From Escherichia coli (GTDB lineage Bacteria > Pseudomonadota > Gammaproteobacteria > Enterobacterales > Enterobacteriaceae), in assembly GCF_044647545.1 (NCBI RefSeq), contig NZ_CP172818.1: a stretch of DNA of 64,000 bases; one strand, written 5' to 3'. A program made the position numbers and the translations under genes. Positions 3,975-64,000 of this stretch are shown piece after piece. The notes beneath the pieces were generated by a model that did not search any database, was not told where the DNA came from, and was given only the letters and a program-made list of their open reading frames with translations. Numbering within the stretch: the stretch's first letter is position 1; the number at the start of each line of letters is the position of its first letter.

Positions 3975-4138
3975 TGCCGGATGCGCTTTGCTTATCCGGC
4001 CTACAAAATCGCAGCGTGTAGGCCTGATAAACTCGAAAATTTATCGGTCAAAATGCATACCGCGCTCGCATCAGGCGGTGAATGCCGGATGCGCTTTGCT
4101 TATCCGGCCTACAAAATCGCAGCGTGTAGGCCTGATAA
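3975..4138. repeat. REP/BIME-type palindromic units in the araA–araD intergenic region, including a 56-bp perfect direct repeat
   Basis: tgccggatgcgctttgcttatccggcctacaaaatcgcagcgtgtaggcctgataa occurs at 3975..4030 and again at 4083..4138; the gccggatgcg...cgcatcaggc motifs are typical REP. Confidence 0.8.
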
Positions 4139-12797: not shown

Positions 12798-12842
12798 TTT
12801 GCACCTCAAAGAAGAGTGGCAAAGGACTTGAGAAGGAGCCTC

Positions 12843-12925
12843 AAATCCCTTCGCCGGCGTTATCCGGATCAGGTTCGACGGGTATTTTCTCAGCGCACGC
12901 GGCAGCGTGGCACCCCGTTGAGAAC
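12843..12925 (-). promoter_or_regulatory. TPP (thi-box) riboswitch in the thiBPQ leader
   Basis: Minus-strand reads ...ggggtgcc...gctgagaaaatacccgtcgaacctgatccggataacgccggcgaaggga, the conserved thi-element core, directly upstream of thiB. Confidence 0.85.
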
Positions 12926-13119
12926 GGCGTTAGTGTAGTGATTTTGTTATCAACCAGCAATCATAGAGAAGGCGTATTAAAAAAGCCAATATTCGTTCAG
13001 CTATCAAGGACGTATTTGCATAGCTGGGAAGCTTTGAACCGAAAGAATCCCTTAGCACAGTCAAAATCGGTAATGCAACCTTATTGCGTGAATGACGATT
13101 TTTGACATATTCTTTCAGG

Positions 13120-13712
<593 letters not shown>

Positions 13713-13713
13713 G

Positions 13714-15369
13714 CGATGGATCCGGCGGCGCAAACCACGCTGATTTAAAATCGAACCAGCCGAGGGTGTTCATACGTAGACCGCGCATACTGCGTTGCCC
13801 CTGAATGATCAGCCAGTGGTGGATAAGCGGCACCATTGCTTTGCTGGCGACCAGTTGCTGGCACCAGTTCGCCAGGTTCATTTCGCCATTGCGCCAGCGG
13901 GCGGCGTCGGCTTGCCAGTCGATGGGAAGACAGTGTTGGAGCAGCGGCACCTCGCACAAGTGCGCGAACAGCGAAAAATCCAGCGGCAGCGTAAAGTTGG
14001 CGCTGTTAAGCCAGATATCGCTCTCGATCTCTCCTTCATGCCACTGATCGTAGCTGATCTCTTTGATTTCCAGCGTGACCTGGTGACTTGCCAGAATCTG
14101 CTGCATGATCCCGGCAATCACTCGATGCTCAATATGATCCTGATAAAAGGTCAGGGTGAGGCTTTCCAGCCCGGCGGGTTTTTCGCAATGTGTCGGACGA
14201 GCATGGTGCCAACGGGGGAGCAGTCCATAAGCCGGGAACCACAGTTGCTGGTACTGTTCCTCAGCGAAATAGACCAGATTAGTTGGAGAAAGCACATAGC
14301 TTACCCAGTCCCTGACTTGCTGATTCGCCCCGCGATGGGTGCGGCTGTCGAACAGTAAATAGTAGCAACCTTCCTCCAGGCGGCTTTCAATCTCTTTTTC
14401 CTCGCCCTGTGGCCCTTTTAGCATCAGCCCTCCGGCTGGCTCGTCGGCAATTTCCGGCAGAACCCAGACGTTAACTTCGTCGATTAATGCCCGGTAACCG
14501 AAGAAGTCATCGAATGCCTGAATTTTCAGTTGATTGGTGCTGTTGCGGATCACCGCATACGGACCGGTGCCGATGGGATGGCTGGCAAAGTTACTGAGGG
14601 TTTCCCATTCGCGCGGCAGGATCATCGCCGGAACTTGCCCCAGCAGTAACGGCAACCAGCGATCCGGCTGCGTGAGGTGGATATCCAGCGTCCAGGGCGT
14701 CGGCGATACAATTTCAGCAATATGCGAATAGAGCGGCAGCGTATTGATCCGTTTTAAAGAGGCGATCACATCGTCCATTTCCAGTTCACGACCATGATGA
14801 AAATGGACTCCTGGACGCAAAAAGAAACGCCAGTGAAGCGGTGATATTTGCTGCCAGTGGTGGGCGATGTCTGCTTCCAGTTCCCCATTTTCCTCATTTA
14901 TGCGCGTTAGCGAACTGAAGATTTGCCGGGCGATATGGGTTTCGGAACGACGCAATGCACTGCCGGGCAGCAGATTACGCAACGGACGATAGTAGAGAAC
15001 GCGCAGGATGTGCCGCCCCTGGCGGAAGCTGCGTCCCAGATGAGAAACCAACATTTGCCGCACAGCCGCTTTGTCGCCAACCAGTTGCACCAGTTGATCG
15101 ATACGATCCTGCTCCAGCAGGTCTTCCGCCCGCTGTTGCTGAAGCGCCAGCCCGGTATAGAGGAATGTCAGACGCGAGCGTTTACCGCGCCCGACTTCCG
15201 CTTCCCACGTCAGCCAGCCGCGATCCTGCATGGTGTTGAGCAGGGTGCGCATATGACGACGCGAGCAACTCAGTAACGCTGCCAGTTCGTTGAGCGTGGT
15301 CTCCTGCGATTTACCCTCGCAGCATTGCCACAGGCGGATGAACTGTTGTTGCAGACGAGCAGATGGCAT
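13714..15369 (-). CDS. sgrR: sugar-phosphate stress transcriptional regulator SgrR; 3' end uncertain because the frame runs into the low-complexity tract
   Basis: Track ORF 13660..15390 (576 aa); start set at [15 protein letters not shown]; remembered length 551 aa would place the native stop near 13714, but here the frame continues ...[22 protein letters not shown] into homopolymer sequence. Confidence 0.8.
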
Positions 15370-15436: not shown

Positions 15437-15663
15437 GATGAAGCAAGGAGGTGCCCCATGCGTCAGTTTTATCAGCACTATTTTACCGCGACAGCGAAGT
15501 TGTGCTGGTTGCGTTGGTTAAGCGTCCCACAACGATTAACTATGCTGAAGAACTGATGCAGTGGGAGGGGAGTCATTCTGACTACTGATTTGCGGACATC
15601 ATGTGTGACTGAGTATTGGTGCTAATCGCCACGCCAGCAGTGATTATTGCTGGCTTTTTTCTT
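15437..15663 (+). ncRNA. sgrS: small RNA SgrS (glucose-phosphate stress)
   Basis: Starts gatgaagcaagg 67 bp from the divergent sgrR start; conserved seed gtgtgactgagtattggtg at 15602..15620; hairpin ccagcag/ctgctgg plus T-run at 15633..15663. Confidence 0.8.
15458..15556 (+). CDS. sgrT: small protein SgrT encoded within sgrS, 32 codons here
   Basis: ATG after ggagg RBS; MRQFYQHYFTATAKLCWLRWLSVPQRLTMLKN; shorter than the 43 aa I recall for K-12. Confidence 0.6.
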   Translation: MRQFYQHYFTATAKLCWLRWLSVPQRLTMLKN

Positions 15664-15687
15664 TGGCGATTGAGCCGACGGGACAAA

Positions 15688-48277: not shown

Positions 48278-48365
48278 TAAGACGTTTTCGCCGCATCCGA
48301 CATTCGCACACGATGCCTGATGCGACGCTCCGCCCGCGTCTTATCAGGCCAGCGTCGCATCAGAC
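48278..48365. repeat. REP palindromic unit(s) in the mutT–yacG intergenic region
   Basis: Inverted motifs gcctgatgcgacgct / agcgtcgcatcaga and ggtcagataagacg / cgtcttatcaggcc. Confidence 0.75.
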
Positions 48366-56900: not shown

Positions 56901-58274
56901 TTAATGCGCTTTTACGGCTTTGGCGGTTTTCTCTTTAAACAGATAGCCGATACCTAACACGATCAGCCATACCGGGATCAGGTATACCGAAATCGCCATT
57001 CCTGGGGTCATCAGCATAATCACCAATACCGCCGCCATAAACAGCAGGCAGATCCAGTTACCCAGCGGATAAAGCAGAGCAGGGAAGCGAGTTACCACGC
57101 CTTGTTCCTGCTTGGCGCGACGGAATTTCATATGCGCCAGGCTAATCATCGCCCAGTTGATGACCAGTGCAGATACCACCAGCGCCATTAACAGGCCGAA
57201 TGCGGATTCCGGTGCAAGGTAGTTAATCAGCACGCACAATGCCGTAACCAGCGCAGACACCAGAATAGTATTAACCGGTACACCGCGTTTGTCGACAGAC
57301 GCCAGCGCTTTTGGCGCGTTGCCCTGTTGTGCCAGACCAAACAGCATACGGCTGTTGCAATATACGCAGCTGTTGTACACGGAGAGCGCCGCAGTCAGTA
57401 CCACGATGTTCAGCGCATTTGCCACAAAGGTATCGCCTAACTCGTGGAAGATCAGCACAAACGGGCTGGTGTCAGCGGTAACGCGTGTCCACGGCATCAG
57501 TGAGAGCAGAACGGCTAACGAACCAATGTAGAAAATCAGGATGCGGTAGATAACCTGGTTAGTCGCTTTTGGAATACTTTGCTCCGGGTTATCTGCTTCT
57601 GCTGCGGTGATGCCCACCAGTTCCAGACCACCGAAAGAGAACATGATAATCGCCATCATCATCACCAGCCCGGTGAAGCCGTGCGGCAGGAAACCACCCT
57701 GATCCCACAGGTTGCTAACGGTCGCCTGCGGGCCGCCGTTGCCACTGAATAGCAGCCAGCCGCCGAAGATGATCATCGCTACCACCGCGATAACTTTGAT
57801 AATGGCAAACCAGAACTCCATCTCGCCAAACACTTTTACGTTTGTCAGGTTGATGGCGTTGATCACCACAAAGAACACGGCGGCAGAAACCCAGGTGGGG
57901 ATTTCCGGATACCAGAACTGAATGTATTTACCCACGGCAGTCAGCTCTGCCATGGCAACTAAAACGTACAGTACCCAGTAGTTCCAGCCAGAGGCGAAAC
58001 CGGCAAAACTGCCCCAGTATTTATAAGCAAAGTGGCTAAAGGAGCCTGCGACAGGTTCTTCGACCACCATTTCACCTAGCTGACGCATGATCAGAAAGGC
58101 GATAAAACCAGCAATGGCGTAACCCAGGATAATCCCTGGCCCTGCAGACTGTATTACGGAGGCGCTACCCAGGAATAGCCCGGTCCCTATCGCGCCACCC
58201 AGCGCGATAAGCTGAATATGGCGGTTTTTAAGGCCGCGCTTTAGCTGCTCGCCGTGCTGTTGACCTTCCATCAT
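56901..58274 (-). CDS. aroP: aromatic amino acid:H+ symporter (APC family)
   Basis: 457-aa polytopic ORF, MMEGQQHGEQLKRGLKNRHIQLIALGGAIGTGLF. Confidence 0.95.
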   Translation of the reverse strand: MMEGQQHGEQLKRGLKNRHIQLIALGGAIGTGLFLGSASVIQSAGPGIILGYAIAGFIAFLIMRQLGEMVVEEPVAGSFSHFAYKYWGSFAGFASGWNYWVLYVLVAMAELTAVGKYIQFWYPEIPTWVSAAVFFVVINAINLTNVKVFGEMEFWFAIIKVIAVVAMIIFGGWLLFSGNGGPQATVSNLWDQGGFLPHGFTGLVMMMAIIMFSFGGLELVGITAAEADNPEQSIPKATNQVIYRILIFYIGSLAVLLSLMPWTRVTADTSPFVLIFHELGDTFVANALNIVVLTAALSVYNSCVYCNSRMLFGLAQQGNAPKALASVDKRGVPVNTILVSALVTALCVLINYLAPESAFGLLMALVVSALVINWAMISLAHMKFRRAKQEQGVVTRFPALLYPLGNWICLLFMAAVLVIMLMTPGMAISVYLIPVWLIVLGIGYLFKEKTAKAVKAH

Positions 58275-58766
58275 GAAACCTCGTGCGGTGATTGTTTTTT
58301 TGATCTACGCAGTGATGCGTGTGTAAGTTTGCAATTCCGTTTGTTGTATTAATTTGTTTACATCAAAGAAGTTTGAATTGTTACAAAAAGACTTCCGTCA
58401 GATCAAGAATAATGGTATGTGACAGCGAATGCACCCGCTTTATGCATGGTTGAAGATGAGTTGCTTAAAAAGAAACCGTTTGTAAAGCTCAGCCTCAACC
58501 CCTCTCAATATGCAGAATGAATTTAAATTCGTTTTAATTGAATTAAAAATCACAAAATTGGTAAGTGAATCGGTTCAATTCGGATTTTTATAGTTTAATA
58601 ATCGTTAAAAAATCCCTTTCCTACGTAAAGTCTACATTTGTGCATAGTTACAACTTTGAAACGTTATATATGTCAAGTTGTTAAAATGTGCACAGTTTCA
58701 TGATTTCAATCAAAACCTGTATGGACATAAGGTGAATACTTTGTTACTTTAGCGTCACAGACATGA

Positions 58767-58783
58767 AATTGGTAAGACCAATT
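58767..58783. promoter_or_regulatory. PdhR operator palindrome (aattggtaagaccaatt) at the pdhR promoter
   Basis: Perfect inverted repeat ATTGGT-nnn-ACCAAT about 30 bp upstream of the pdhR start. Confidence 0.8.
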
Positions 58784-58814
58784 GACTTCGGCAAGTGGCT
58801 TAAGACAGGAACTC

Positions 58815-59579
58815 ATGGCCTACAGCAAAATCCGCCAACCAAAACTCTCCGATGTGATTGAGCAGCAACTGGAGTTTTTGATCCTCGAAGGCACTCTCCG
58901 CCCGGGCGAAAAACTCCCACCGGAACGCGAACTGGCAAAACAGTTTGACGTCTCCCGTCCCTCATTGCGTGAGGCGATTCAACGTCTCGAAGCGAAGGGC
59001 TTGTTGCTTCGTCGCCAGGGTGGCGGCACTTTTGTCCAGAGCAGCCTATGGCAAAGCTTCAGCGATCCGCTGGTGGAGCTGCTCTCCGACCATCCTGAAT
59101 CACAGTATGACTTGCTCGAAACACGACACGCCCTGGAAGGTATCGCCGCTTATTACGCCGCGCTGCGTAGTACCGATGAAGACAAGGAACGCATCCGTGA
59201 ACTCCACCACGCTATAGAGCTGGCGCAGCAGTCTGGCGATCTGGACGCGGAATCAAACGCCGTACTCCAGTATCAGATTGCCGTCACCGAAGCGGCCCAC
59301 AATGTGGTTCTGCTTCATCTGCTAAGGTGTATGGAGCCGATGTTGGCCCAGAATGTCCGCCAGAACTTCGAATTGCTCTATTCGCGTCGCGAGATGCTGC
59401 CGCTGGTGAGTAGTCACCGCACCCGCATATTTGAAGCGATTATGGCCGGTAAGCCGGAAGAAGCGCGCGAAGCATCGCATCGCCATCTGGCCTTTATCGA
59501 AGAAATTTTGCTCGACAGAAGCCGTGAAGAGAGCCGCCGTGAGCGTTCTCTGCGTCGTCTGGAGCAACGAAAGAATTAG
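58815..59579 (+). CDS. pdhR: pyruvate dehydrogenase complex repressor (GntR family)
   Basis: Track ORF 58782..59579; start set at [14 protein letters not shown] (254 aa). Confidence 0.9.
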
Positions 59580-59739
59580 TGATTTTTCTGGTAAAAATTA
59601 TCCAGAAGATGTTGTAAATCAAGCGCATATAAAAGCGCGGCAACTAAACGTAGAACCTGTCTTATTGAGCTTTCCGGCGAGAGTTCAATGGGACAGGTTC
59701 CAGAAAACTCAACGTTATTAGATAGATAAGGAATAACCC

Positions 59740-62403
59740 ATGTCAGAACGTTTCCCAAATGACGTGGATCCGATCGAAACTCGCGACTGGCTCCAGGCGA
59801 TCGAATCGGTCATCCGTGAAGAAGGTGTTGAGCGTGCTCAGTATCTGATCGACCAACTGCTTGCTGAAGCCCGCAAAGGCGGTGTCAACGTAGCCGCAGG
59901 CACCGGTATCAGCAACTACATCAACACCATCCCCGTTGAAGAACAACCGGAGTATCCGGGTAATCTGGAACTGGAACGCCGTATTCGTTCAGCTATCCGC
60001 TGGAACGCCATCATGACGGTTCTGCGTGCGTCGAAAAAAGACCTCGAACTGGGCGGCCACATGGCGTCCTTCCAGTCTTCCGCAACCATTTATGATGTGT
60101 GCTTTAACCACTTCTTCCGTGCACGCAACGAGCAGGATGGCGGCGACCTGGTTTACTTCCAGGGCCACATCTCCCCGGGCGTTTACGCTCGTGCTTTCCT
60201 GGAAGGTCGTCTGACTCAGGAGCAGCTGGATAACTTCCGTCAGGAAGTTCACGGCAATGGCCTCTCTTCCTATCCGCACCCGAAACTGATGCCGGAATTC
60301 TGGCAGTTCCCGACCGTATCTATGGGTCTGGGTCCGATTGGTGCTATTTACCAGGCTAAATTCCTGAAATATCTGGAACACCGTGGCCTGAAAGATACCT
60401 CTAAACAGACCGTTTACGCGTTCCTCGGCGACGGTGAAATGGACGAACCGGAATCCAAAGGTGCGATCACCATCGCTACTCGTGAAAAACTGGATAACCT
60501 GGTCTTCGTTATCAACTGTAACCTGCAGCGTCTTGACGGCCCGGTCACCGGTAACGGCAAGATCATCAACGAACTGGAAGGCATCTTCGAAGGTGCTGGC
60601 TGGAACGTGATCAAAGTGATGTGGGGTAGCCGTTGGGATGAACTGCTGCGTAAAGATACCAGCGGTAAACTGATCCAGCTGATGAACGAAACCGTTGACG
60701 GCGACTACCAGACCTTCAAATCGAAAGATGGTGCGTACGTTCGTGAACACTTCTTCGGTAAATATCCTGAAACCGCAGCACTGGTTGCAGACTGGACTGA
60801 CGAGCAGATCTGGGCACTGAACCGTGGTGGTCACGATCCGAAGAAAATCTACGCTGCATTCAAGAAAGCGCAGGAAACCAAAGGCAAAGCGACAGTAATC
60901 CTTGCTCATACCATTAAAGGTTACGGCATGGGCGACGCGGCTGAAGGTAAAAACATCGCGCACCAGGTTAAGAAAATGAACATGGACGGCGTGCGTCACA
61001 TCCGCGACCGTTTCAATGTGCCGGTGTCTGATGCAGATATCGAAAAACTGCCGTACATCACCTTCCCGGAAGGTTCTGAAGAGCATACCTATCTGCACGC
61101 TCAGCGTCAGAAACTGCACGGTTATCTGCCAAGCCGTCAGCCGAACTTCACCGAGAAGCTTGAGCTGCCGAGCCTGCAAGACTTCGGCGCGCTGCTGGAA
61201 GAGCAGAGCAAAGAGATCTCTACCACTATCGCTTTCGTTCGTGCCCTGAACGTAATGCTGAAGAACAAGTCGATCAAAGACCGACTGGTGCCGATCATCG
61301 CCGACGAAGCGCGTACTTTCGGTATGGAAGGTCTGTTCCGTCAGATTGGTATTTACAGCCCGAACGGTCAGCAGTACACCCCGCAGGACCGCGAGCAGGT
61401 TGCTTACTATAAAGAAGACGAGAAAGGTCAGATTCTGCAGGAAGGGATCAACGAGCTGGGCGCTGGGTGTTCCTGGCTGGCAGCGGCGACCTCTTACAGC
61501 ACCAACAATCTGCCGATGATTCCGTTCTACATCTATTACTCGATGTTCGGCTTCCAGCGTATCGGCGATCTGTGCTGGGCGGCTGGTGACCAGCAAGCGC
61601 GTGGCTTCCTGATCGGCGGTACTTCCGGTCGTACCACCCTGAACGGCGAAGGTCTGCAGCACGAAGATGGTCACAGCCACATTCAGTCGCTGACTATCCC
61701 GAACTGTATCTCTTACGACCCGGCTTACGCTTACGAAGTTGCTGTCATCATGCATGACGGTCTGGAGCGTATGTACGGTGAAAAACAAGAGAACGTTTAC
61801 TACTACATCACTACGCTGAACGAAAACTACCACATGCCGGCAATGCCGGAAGGTGCTGAGGAAGGTATCCGTAAAGGTATCTACAAACTCGAAACCATTG
61901 AAGGTAGCAAAGGTAAAGTTCAGCTGCTGGGCTCCGGTTCTATCCTGCGTCACGTCCGTGAAGCGGCAGAGATCCTGGCGAAAGACTACGGCGTAGGTTC
62001 TGACGTTTATAGCGTGACCTCATTCACCGAACTGGCGCGTGATGGTCAGGATTGTGAACGCTGGAACATGCTGCACCCGCTGGAAACTCCGCGCGTTCCG
62101 TATATCGCTCAGGTGATGAATGACGCTCCGGCAGTGGCATCTACCGACTATATGAAACTGTTCGCTGAGCAGGTCCGTACTTACGTACCGGCTGACGACT
62201 ACCGCGTACTGGGTACTGATGGCTTCGGTCGTTCCGACAGCCGTGAGAACCTGCGTCACCACTTCGAAGTTGATGCTTCTTATGTCGTGGTTGCGGCGCT
62301 GGGCGAACTGGCTAAACGTGGCGAAATCGATAAGAAAGTGGTTGCTGACGCAATCGCCAAATTCAACATCGATGCAGATAAAGTTAACCCGCGTCTGGCG
62401 TAA
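59740..62403 (+). CDS. aceE: pyruvate dehydrogenase E1 component
   Basis: 887-aa [27 protein letters not shown]... Confidence 0.97.
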
Positions 62404-62417
62404 GAGGTAAAAGAATA

Positions 62418-63250
62418 ATGGCTATCGAAATCAAAGTACCGGACATCGGGGCTGATGAAGTTGAAATCACCGAGATCCTGGTCAAAGTGGGCGACAAAGT
62501 TGAAGCCGAACAGTCGCTGATCACCGTAGAAGGCGACAAAGCCTCTATGGAAGTTCCGTCTCCGCAGGCGGGTATCGTTAAAGAGATCAAAGTCTCTGTT
62601 GGCGATAAAACCCAGACCGGCGCACTGATTATGATTTTCGATTCCGCCGACGGTGCAGCAGACGCTGCACCTGCTCAGGCAGAAGAGAAGAAAGAAGCAG
62701 CTCCGGCAGCAGCACCAGCGGCTGCCGCGGCAAAAGACGTTAACGTTCCGGATATCGGCAGCGACGAAGTTGAAGTGACCGAAATCCTGGTGAAAGTTGG
62801 CGATAAAGTTGAAGCTGAACAGTCGCTGATCACCGTAGAAGGCGACAAGGCTTCTATGGAAGTTCCGGCTCCGTTTGCTGGCACCGTGAAAGAGATCAAA
62901 GTGAACGTGGGTGACAAAGTGTCTACCGGCTCGCTGATTATGGTCTTCGAAGTCGCGGGTGAAGCAGGCGCGGCAGCTCCGGCGGCTAAACAGGAAGCAG
63001 CTCCGGCAGCGGCCTCTGCATCAGCAGCTGGCGTGAAAGAAGTTAACGTTCCGGATATCGGCGGTGACGAAGTTGAAGTGACCGAAGTGATGGTGAAAGT
63101 GGGCGACAAAGTTGCCGCTGAACAGTCACTGATCACCGTAGAAGGCGATAAAGCTTCTATGGAAGTTCCGGCTCCGTTTGCAGGCGTCGTGAAGGAACTG
63201 AAAGTCAACGTTGGCGATAAAGTGAAAACTGGCTCGCTGATTATGATCTT
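62418..63250 (+). repeat. three tandem ~300-bp lipoyl-domain repeats with Ala/Pro-rich linkers inside aceF
   Basis: Near-identical segments ...gatcaccgtagaaggcgacaa(a/g)gc(c/t)tctatggaagttccg... at about 62500, 62800 and 63100, each carrying the lipoyl-lysine DKASME motif. Confidence 0.9.
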
Positions 63251-64000
63251 CGAAGTTGAAGGCGCAGCGCCTGCGGCAGCTCCTGCGAAACAGGAAGCGG
63301 CAGCGCCGGCTCCGGCAGCAAAAGCTGAAGCTCCGGCAGCAGCTCCGGCTGCGAAAGCGGAAGGCAAATCTGAATTTGCTGAAAACGACGCTTACGTTCA
63401 CGCGACTCCGCTGATCCGCCGTCTGGCACGCGAGTTTGGCGTTAACCTGGCGAAAGTGAAGGGCACTGGCCGTAAAGGTCGTATCCTGCGCGAAGACGTT
63501 CAGGCTTACGTGAAAGAAGCTATCAAACGTGCAGAAGCGGCTCCGGCGGTGACTGGCGGCGGTATCCCAGGCATGCTGCCGTGGCCGAAAGTGGACTTCA
63601 GCAAGTTTGGTGAAATCGAAGAAGTGGAACTGGGCCGTATCCAGAAAATTTCTGGTGCGAACCTGAGCCGTAACTGGGTGATGATCCCGCATGTTACCCA
63701 CTTCGACAAAACCGATATCACCGAGCTGGAAGCGTTCCGTAAACAGCAGAACGAAGAAGCGGCGAAACGTAAGCTGGATGTGAAGATAACCCCAGTTGTC
63801 TTCATCATGAAAGCCGTTGCTGCAGCTCTTGAGCAGATGCCTCGCTTCAACAGTTCGCTGTCGGAAGACGGTCAGCGTCTGACCCTGAAGAAATACATCA
63901 ACATCGGTGTGGCGGTGGATACCCCGAACGGTCTGGTTGTTCCGGTATTCAAAGACGTCAACAAGAAAGGCATCATCGAGCTGTCTCGCGAGCTGATGAC
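62418..64000 (+). CDS. aceF: dihydrolipoyllysine acetyltransferase (PDH E2), 5' portion; continues past window end
   Basis: My translation [46 protein letters not shown]...; three lipoyl domains, then the E3-binding domain and the start of the catalytic domain. Confidence 0.95.

Follow-up and report, generated by a model that had tools for sequence, protein, structure and literature searches.

The window, a 64,000-nt stretch of Escherichia coli DNA, closes inside aceF, the gene for the dihydrolipoyllysine-residue acetyltransferase E2p, the E2 chain of pyruvate dehydrogenase (Table 1). Upstream lies aceE, an 887-codon open reading frame at 59740-62403 that ends 14 nt before aceF. This is preceded by pdhR (58782/58815-59579), and aroP is also among the surrounding genes. 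In matching genomes, the next gene after aceF is lpdA, which completes the pdhR-aceE-aceF-lpdA context. The locus is the canonical E. coli pdhR-aceEF-lpdA. A match to the tp2 sRNA family (RF02030) was also found on the minus strand at 59624-59737, scoring 103.4 bits (gathering score 50). It lies between pdhR and aceE and runs antisense to the operon.

Table 1. Features of the aceF locus in the window. Positions are those of the window; aa, residues of AceF.
Feature	Position	Strand	Details
aceF CDS (dihydrolipoyllysine-residue acetyltransferase, E2p)	62418..64000	+	5' 527 codons; runs past window end
Lipoyl domain 1 (LD1) core	62424..62645	+	aa 3-76; PF00364; K41 codon AAA 62538-62540
Longest exact LD1/LD2 run, 32 nt	62508..62539; second copy 62817-62848	+	candidate crossover/graph-collapse point
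Linker 1	62646..62732	+	aa 77-105; 29 residues; 69% Ala+Pro
Lipoyl domain 2 (LD2) core	62733..62954	+	aa 106-179; PF00364; K144 codon AAG 62847-62849
Longest exact LD2/LD3 run, 29 nt	62850..62878; second copy 63153-63181	+	candidate crossover/graph-collapse point
Linker 2	62955..63035	+	aa 180-206; 27 residues; 63% Ala+Pro
Lipoyl domain 3 (LD3) core, innermost	63036..63257	+	aa 207-280; PF00364; K245 codon AAA 63150-63152
Linker 3	63258..63365	+	aa 281-316; 36 residues; 72% Ala+Pro
Peripheral subunit (E1/E3) binding domain (PSBD)	63396..63503	+	aa 327-362; PF02817, 60.9 bits
Acetyltransferase catalytic (core-forming) domain, N-terminal half	63612..63998	+	about aa 399-527; PF00198

On translation, the aceF frame remains open from 62418 through all three repeat units to the end of the window. 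The full-length gene has 630 codons in the identical allele of the complete genome FDAARGOS_497, and RefSeq annotates the matching allele as aceF (WP_022645180.1). The truncated 527-residue product scores 875.6 bits with the NCBIfam equivalog model NF008814 (cut-off 722) and 809 bits with TIGR01348 (cut-off 552), while the identical full-length allele reaches 1098 and 1040 bits, respectively. In a phmmer comparison, residues 1-630 of the full-length allele matched all 630 residues of E. coli E2p in PDB 7B9K (E=0, 1314 bits). E. coli SucB, the E2o of 2-oxoglutarate dehydrogenase, is a homologous acyltransferase that also combines a lipoyl domain, a PSBD and a catalytic core, but SucB models fall far below their cut-offs on the AceF found here (NF004309, 243 bits against 449). 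SucB has a single lipoyl domain.

Biotin_lipoyl (PF00364) is matched by three stretches of AceF, with 224.7 bits in total, and the motif GDKASMEV occurs three times, each time placing a lipoyl-lysine (K41, K144 and K245) in a DKA turn. The three linkers range from 63 to 72% Ala+Pro. The first-pass annotation had read the repeats as the lipoyl domains of AceF/E2p, three in number as expected and accompanied by Ala/Pro-rich linkers, a reading borne out by Pfam, NCBIfam, PDB 7B9K and published work (PMC8421416). LD3 is matched by PDB 1QJO (aa 206-284) and 2K7V, which together cover aa 206-293, and the PSBD by PDB 4QOY chain E and 8OQJ. For the catalytic domain, the match is PDB 4N72, over aa 382-630 of the full-length allele. 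Within the window, the PF00198 match covers profile positions 3-128 of 232, as the domain is cut by the window end. Because the window stops at codon 527, the DHRxxDG active-site motif (DHRVIDG) is visible only in the identical allele of FDAARGOS_497. Compared with E. coli K-12 AceF/E2p (7B9K, 1QJO, 4N72), the gene here is the same, follows aceE in the same way, has the same LD1-LD2-LD3-PSBD-catalytic order and carries its lipoyl-lysines at positions 41, 144 and 245. No structure was predicted for AceF, since solved structures of the same protein exist.

At the nucleotide level, these domains appear as a tandem array. Tandem Repeats Finder (TRF) placed it at 62439-63256, with a period of 303, 2.7 copies, 80% matches and a score of 992. 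A gap-free repeat finder returned three copies of 300 nt, the second starting 309 nt after the first and the third 303 nt after the second. When the window was compared with a matching genome by Megablast, the array also aligned to itself out of register over 571 nt (79.9% identity, E=1e-111), far beyond chance. Tandem repeats of about 300 bp in three units, reported by the first-pass annotation at 62418-63250, are therefore present at that place. The first of these bounds is exactly the ATG of aceF, and the second lies 7 nt before the end of the LD3 core at 63257.

The units had also been described as near-identical at the DNA level, which overstates their likeness. Alignment by codon of the 74-codon (222-nt) cores listed in Table 1 gave 78% amino-acid and 77.5% DNA identity for LD1/LD2, 76% and 77.0% for LD1/LD3, and 88% and 86.5% for LD2/LD3. 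The linkers, low-complexity stretches coding for Ala and Pro, are mutually only loosely similar (61-76%). Besides the two longest exact runs, of 32 and 29 nt, the units share further exact runs of 21, 21 and 20 nt, and a 20-nt LD2/LD3 run (62826/63129) precedes the 29-nt one. The copies thus lack the long exact homology that would characterise a recombination-prone, near-identical repeat. Since the longest exact repeat is only 32 nt, reads of at least 100 nt, or any k above 32, separate the units in this strain.

Codon choice provides a further view of how the units are related. It was examined at positions where two domains carry the same amino acid, with the expectation derived from codon frequencies in aceE and in the core of aceF. 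The excess of identical codons is clear for LD2/LD3 (51 observed, 34.9 expected; z=4.35) and modest for LD1/LD2 (40 observed, 32.2 expected; z=2.2) and LD1/LD3 (39 observed, 30.7 expected; z=2.4). This excess indicates common descent of the units, and LD2 and LD3 have probably undergone some later exchange with each other. A recent duplication of the units was also considered and rejected, the codon excess being read as an old duplication followed by occasional exchange between units.

Comparison with complete genomes bears directly on copy number, which the first-pass annotation had held to be worth confirming. Positions 62300-63500 are 100% identical to FDAARGOS_497 (1201 against 1201 nt), and window 39001-64000 has matches of equal score and equal record span (24,998 against 25,000 bases) in at least 12 independent complete genomes. 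Across 37501-64000, FDAARGOS_497 shows 0 mismatches and a single 2-bp gap, an intergenic CC insertion at 48330 that lies 14 kb from aceF. The same genome also matches window 20001-45000 perfectly. More broadly, 5,422 of 5,426 complete E. coli genomes carry at least 80% of 62300-63500 in one place. Because the aceF region is identical to many independently finished genomes, a correct three-copy state is supported here.

This agreement in both sequence and length makes it very improbable that the array was mis-assembled, with a true copy number of two or four or with domain halves swapped, even though the window does contain a real assembly or consensus failure at 13129-13716. The first-pass annotation had referred to assembly trouble elsewhere in the window, and this stretch, homopolymer junk without a match in complete E. 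coli genomes, confirms it. Public short-read and metagenome assemblies also hold four-domain forms of aceF whose duplicated blocks start at or beside the shared runs, and these include the inter-species chimeras P0002, P0014 and P0025 and a scrambled Salmonella record. In the window, however, the domain order and signature residues are canonical (PDB 7B9K), the frame is open across the three units, and the longest exact repeat is of a length that such reads or k-mers resolve. The repeat that an assembler would most readily collapse or expand is intact here, which matters for this window as quality control only. Despite the failure at 13.1-13.7 kb, aceF can therefore be used as it stands.

Coverage is blind to expansion, and synthetic hybrid units were therefore used as queries. 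These copied the units found in the observed four-domain alleles, one joining the N-terminal part of LD3 to the C-terminal part of LD2 and linker 2, the other joining the N-terminal part of LD2 to the C-terminal part of LD1 and linker 1. Neither an LD3N/LD2C nor an LD2N/LD1C hybrid unit was found in the 5,426 complete E. coli genomes: no match reached 99%, and the best, at 95.7%, has the value given by an ordinary three-copy array. For the frequency of such aceF expansions in complete E. coli genomes, the 95% upper bound is about 0.055%. Clean collapse by one domain was likewise not seen, as only one of 5,423 matching complete genomes had less than 80% coverage (strain 463), and this is not a unit collapse.

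Two structural variants of aceF were seen in complete genomes. Strain 463 (L001, NZ_CP183105.1, 2619-4319), as assembled, encodes a 566-residue AceF with an in-frame, out-of-register 192-bp deletion that removes aa 164-227, corresponding approximately to window 62907-63098. The C-terminal VGDKV turn of LD2 is thereby fused to the N-terminal VGDKV turn of LD3, with a GTGGG(T/C)GACAAAGT microhomology at the joint, and this is the sole such case in the 5,426 complete genomes. The other variant is a 4-residue deletion in linker 3 of strain L37 (L002, NZ_CP034589.1). TRF identified a 12-nt mini-repeat within linker 3 at 63264-63287, and L37 shows a natural 12-bp (4-residue, AAPA) length polymorphism at this mini-repeat, at about 63264-63275. 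The same short linker 3 recurs in the four-domain entry P0016. Where both strains have AAAPAPAAG in linker 2 and A378, the window allele has AAASASAAG and V378. These two differences lie outside the domain cores and are common to the window allele and FDAARGOS_497, and the L37 and 463 forms are presumably the K-12 forms as well.

Among relatives, then, no clean change in copy number was found in complete E. coli genomes, and four-domain versions occur in draft and metagenome assemblies. The proneness to collapse, expansion and mis-assembly that the first-pass annotation had ascribed to the array applies to other public assemblies, which hold four-domain variants, but not to this window, where three copies match complete genomes. 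In a large protein collection, the top-scoring AceF relatives included around 40 clusters with a single member each, 723-738 residues long and carrying four lipoyl domains, and the sequences of thirteen of the longer ones were inspected. The E. coli variants P0001, P0007, P0012, P0016 and P0020 are 727-738 aa long (loci L006-L010). P0001 has the order LD1-[LD2N/LD1C]-LD2-LD3, and the other four have LD1-LD2-[LD3N/LD2C]-LD3 on differing allelic backgrounds. Four-domain versions of AceF are also present in Salmonella and Citrobacter.

Four of five four-domain contigs have duplicated blocks that repeat exactly over 308-356 nt, with a period of 303 or 309. The block begins at the 20-nt LD2/LD3 run in L006 and L008, ending with the 29-nt run in L008. 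In L009 it begins with the 32-nt LD1/LD2 run, and in L010 upstream of that run. In the fifth contig, L007, the copies are not identical to each other and share exact sequence over at most 83 nt. Junctions at shared runs fit unequal crossing-over, and we reason that an assembler taking a wrong path through a shared k-mer in its de Bruijn graph would produce them equally well. Assemblies GCA_000358395.2 and GCA_019368795.1 encode the same P0001 protein through different DNA junctions, and in some strains longer runs are found, as in L008, where LD2 and LD3 have a 53-nt exact run in common.

The four-domain forms come from draft assemblies and from metagenome contigs built with SPAdes or MEGAHIT. 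In P0002, P0014 and P0025 (ENA), the extra domain differs in sequence from E. coli domains, and these entries are read as probable inter-species chimeras. Two finished Salmonella enterica chromosomes also carry a four-domain aceF. In one (L011, CP075029.1), an exact duplication of LD3 is joined in the linker, and in the other (L012, CP006575.1), the array is scrambled, with LD2N/LD3C followed by LD3N/LD2C. The order in CP006575.1 would need several recombination events and looks like a wrong graph traversal. Taken together, the draft and metagenome sources, the chimeric extra domains, the unequal copies in L007, the scramble in CP006575.1 and the absence from 5,426 complete E. coli genomes indicate that the four-domain AceF entries are at least partly assembly artefacts. 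Two further E. coli entries have smaller internal duplications: P0036 (680 aa) repeats about 50 residues comprising most of the PSBD and the next linker, and P0039 (668 aa) repeats the C-terminal half of LD2. These are probably also assembly artefacts.

It is possible, though doubtful, that some four-domain alleles are real and represent recurrent products of unequal crossing-over at short shared runs. If this were true, aceF would be naturally variable in copy number in Enterobacteriaceae, beyond being a mis-assembly hotspot. The literature searched yielded no report of naturally duplicated lipoyl domains in E. coli aceF, only engineered variants and domain loss in Serratia symbiotica. In general, the aceF array is a genuine spot for mis-assembly or unequal crossing-over, but not in this window. 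Because the four-domain forms, some of them chimeric, are absent from 5,426 complete E. coli genomes, AceF length variants in databases should not be taken as biology without read-level support.

The periodicity almost certainly does not stem, in whole or in part, from a structured RNA, a regulatory DNA repeat or an overlapping antisense gene within aceF. The mechanical minus-strand ORFs of 230 and 191 aa that run across the array have no Pfam match and were rejected as genes, and their low-complexity, Ala/Gly/Ser/Thr-rich translations look like a by-product of a sense strand rich in Ala codons. Within aceF, no match to an Rfam family attained the gathering score. The similarity of the units follows codons, with differences largely at synonymous positions and at known domain-specific residues. 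The Rfam scan of 58000-64000 had the tp2 match in the pdhR-aceE spacer as its only result. Within 62300-63500, no promoter-like sites were detected, and terminator-like sites were no commoner than in shuffled controls.

Positions 62418-63365 are thus almost certainly the three-lipoyl-domain N-terminal region of AceF, present in its normal three copies and assembled correctly. This is a textbook feature, and no evidence against this reading turned up. In the catalytic cycle, lipoyl-lysine is reductively acetylated at E1p (AceE) and then delivers the acetyl group to CoA at the active site of E2. The lipoyl-lysine is then re-oxidised at E3, and the three domains are redundant in this role. Engineered variants, attributed to Guest et al. 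1985 and Dave et al. 1995, reportedly showed that one domain is enough for activity, and fewer than three lipoyl domains are said to lower growth rate and yield, as later papers cite this work.

The region in the window is the 'swinging-arm' part of AceF, in which three lipoyl domains, each some 74 residues long, follow one another and K41, K144 and K245 each stand in a DKA turn where, according to the literature, they would be lipoylated. The 303/309-bp periodicity of the DNA is the nucleotide image of an old internal triplication whose copies are now 77-87% identical. Lipoylation of the three lysines, as well as acetyl-transfer activity, may be expected because AceF here is identical to the E. 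coli protein that has been studied experimentally (PMC8421416). In E. coli E2p, each chain bears three N-terminal lipoyl domains, amounting to 72 per 24-mer core, which are around 73% identical and act as redundant swinging arms (PMC8421416; PMC10849603; PMC6270654). E2 chains carry between one and three lipoyl domains joined by flexible linkers (PMC10849603; PMC6270654), and the flexibility of these linkers is described in the literature (PMC6270654).

The triplication itself is old. Salmonella enterica AceF shares the three positional domains and their signature residues, and its LD1 shares 93% DNA identity with that of E. coli and is plainly orthologous, which places the triplication before the E. 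coli/Salmonella split. In this comparison, which used two Salmonella records that are both atypical four-domain versions, LD2 and LD3 showed about the same identity inside one species (86.5% for E. coli, 89.2% for Salmonella) as across the two (89.6% and 86.0%). This suggests patchy exchange between LD2 and LD3 since the two genera separated.

Beyond these genera, other bacterial E2p chains use the same domain types and linker logic but differ in copy number. Among the best 150 representatives at 50% identity, 45 had one lipoyl domain, 96 had two, seven had three and one had four. In most multi-domain proteins, the domains were each other's closest relatives rather than positional orthologues. 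Given this within-protein clustering and the LD2/LD3 codon excess, exchange between units occurs on evolutionary time scales. Lipoyl-domain copy number clearly changes over evolutionary time, and Serratia symbiotica lineages, for example, have lost one or two lipoyl domains (PMC5013485).

Several anomalies were found elsewhere in the window. At 13129-13716, approximately 590 nt consist of long A, G and C homopolymer runs, and the flank at 13080-13128 is degraded too. The stretch stands in place of the espY2 region, which occupies the thiB-sgrR interval in the closest genomes. It had no match in any complete E. coli genome, the best coverage of 12800-14000 being 51% and limited to the flanks, and it looks like a consensus or base-calling failure, not biology. 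The 2-bp CC insertion at 48330-48331 falls in a REP-like palindrome in the mutT-yacG spacer. No complete genome matched the surrounding 201 nt at 100% (best 99.0%), and the span of the at least 12 genomes that match 39001-64000 at the same score is 2 bases shorter than that of the window. Finally, two clusters of small indels were seen relative to strain IMT16316, reflecting either local strain variation or further low-quality consensus. One, at 4031-4065 in the araD-araA spacer, gives the window about 24 extra bases, and the other, at 15648-15683 around sgrT, leaves it 8 bases short.
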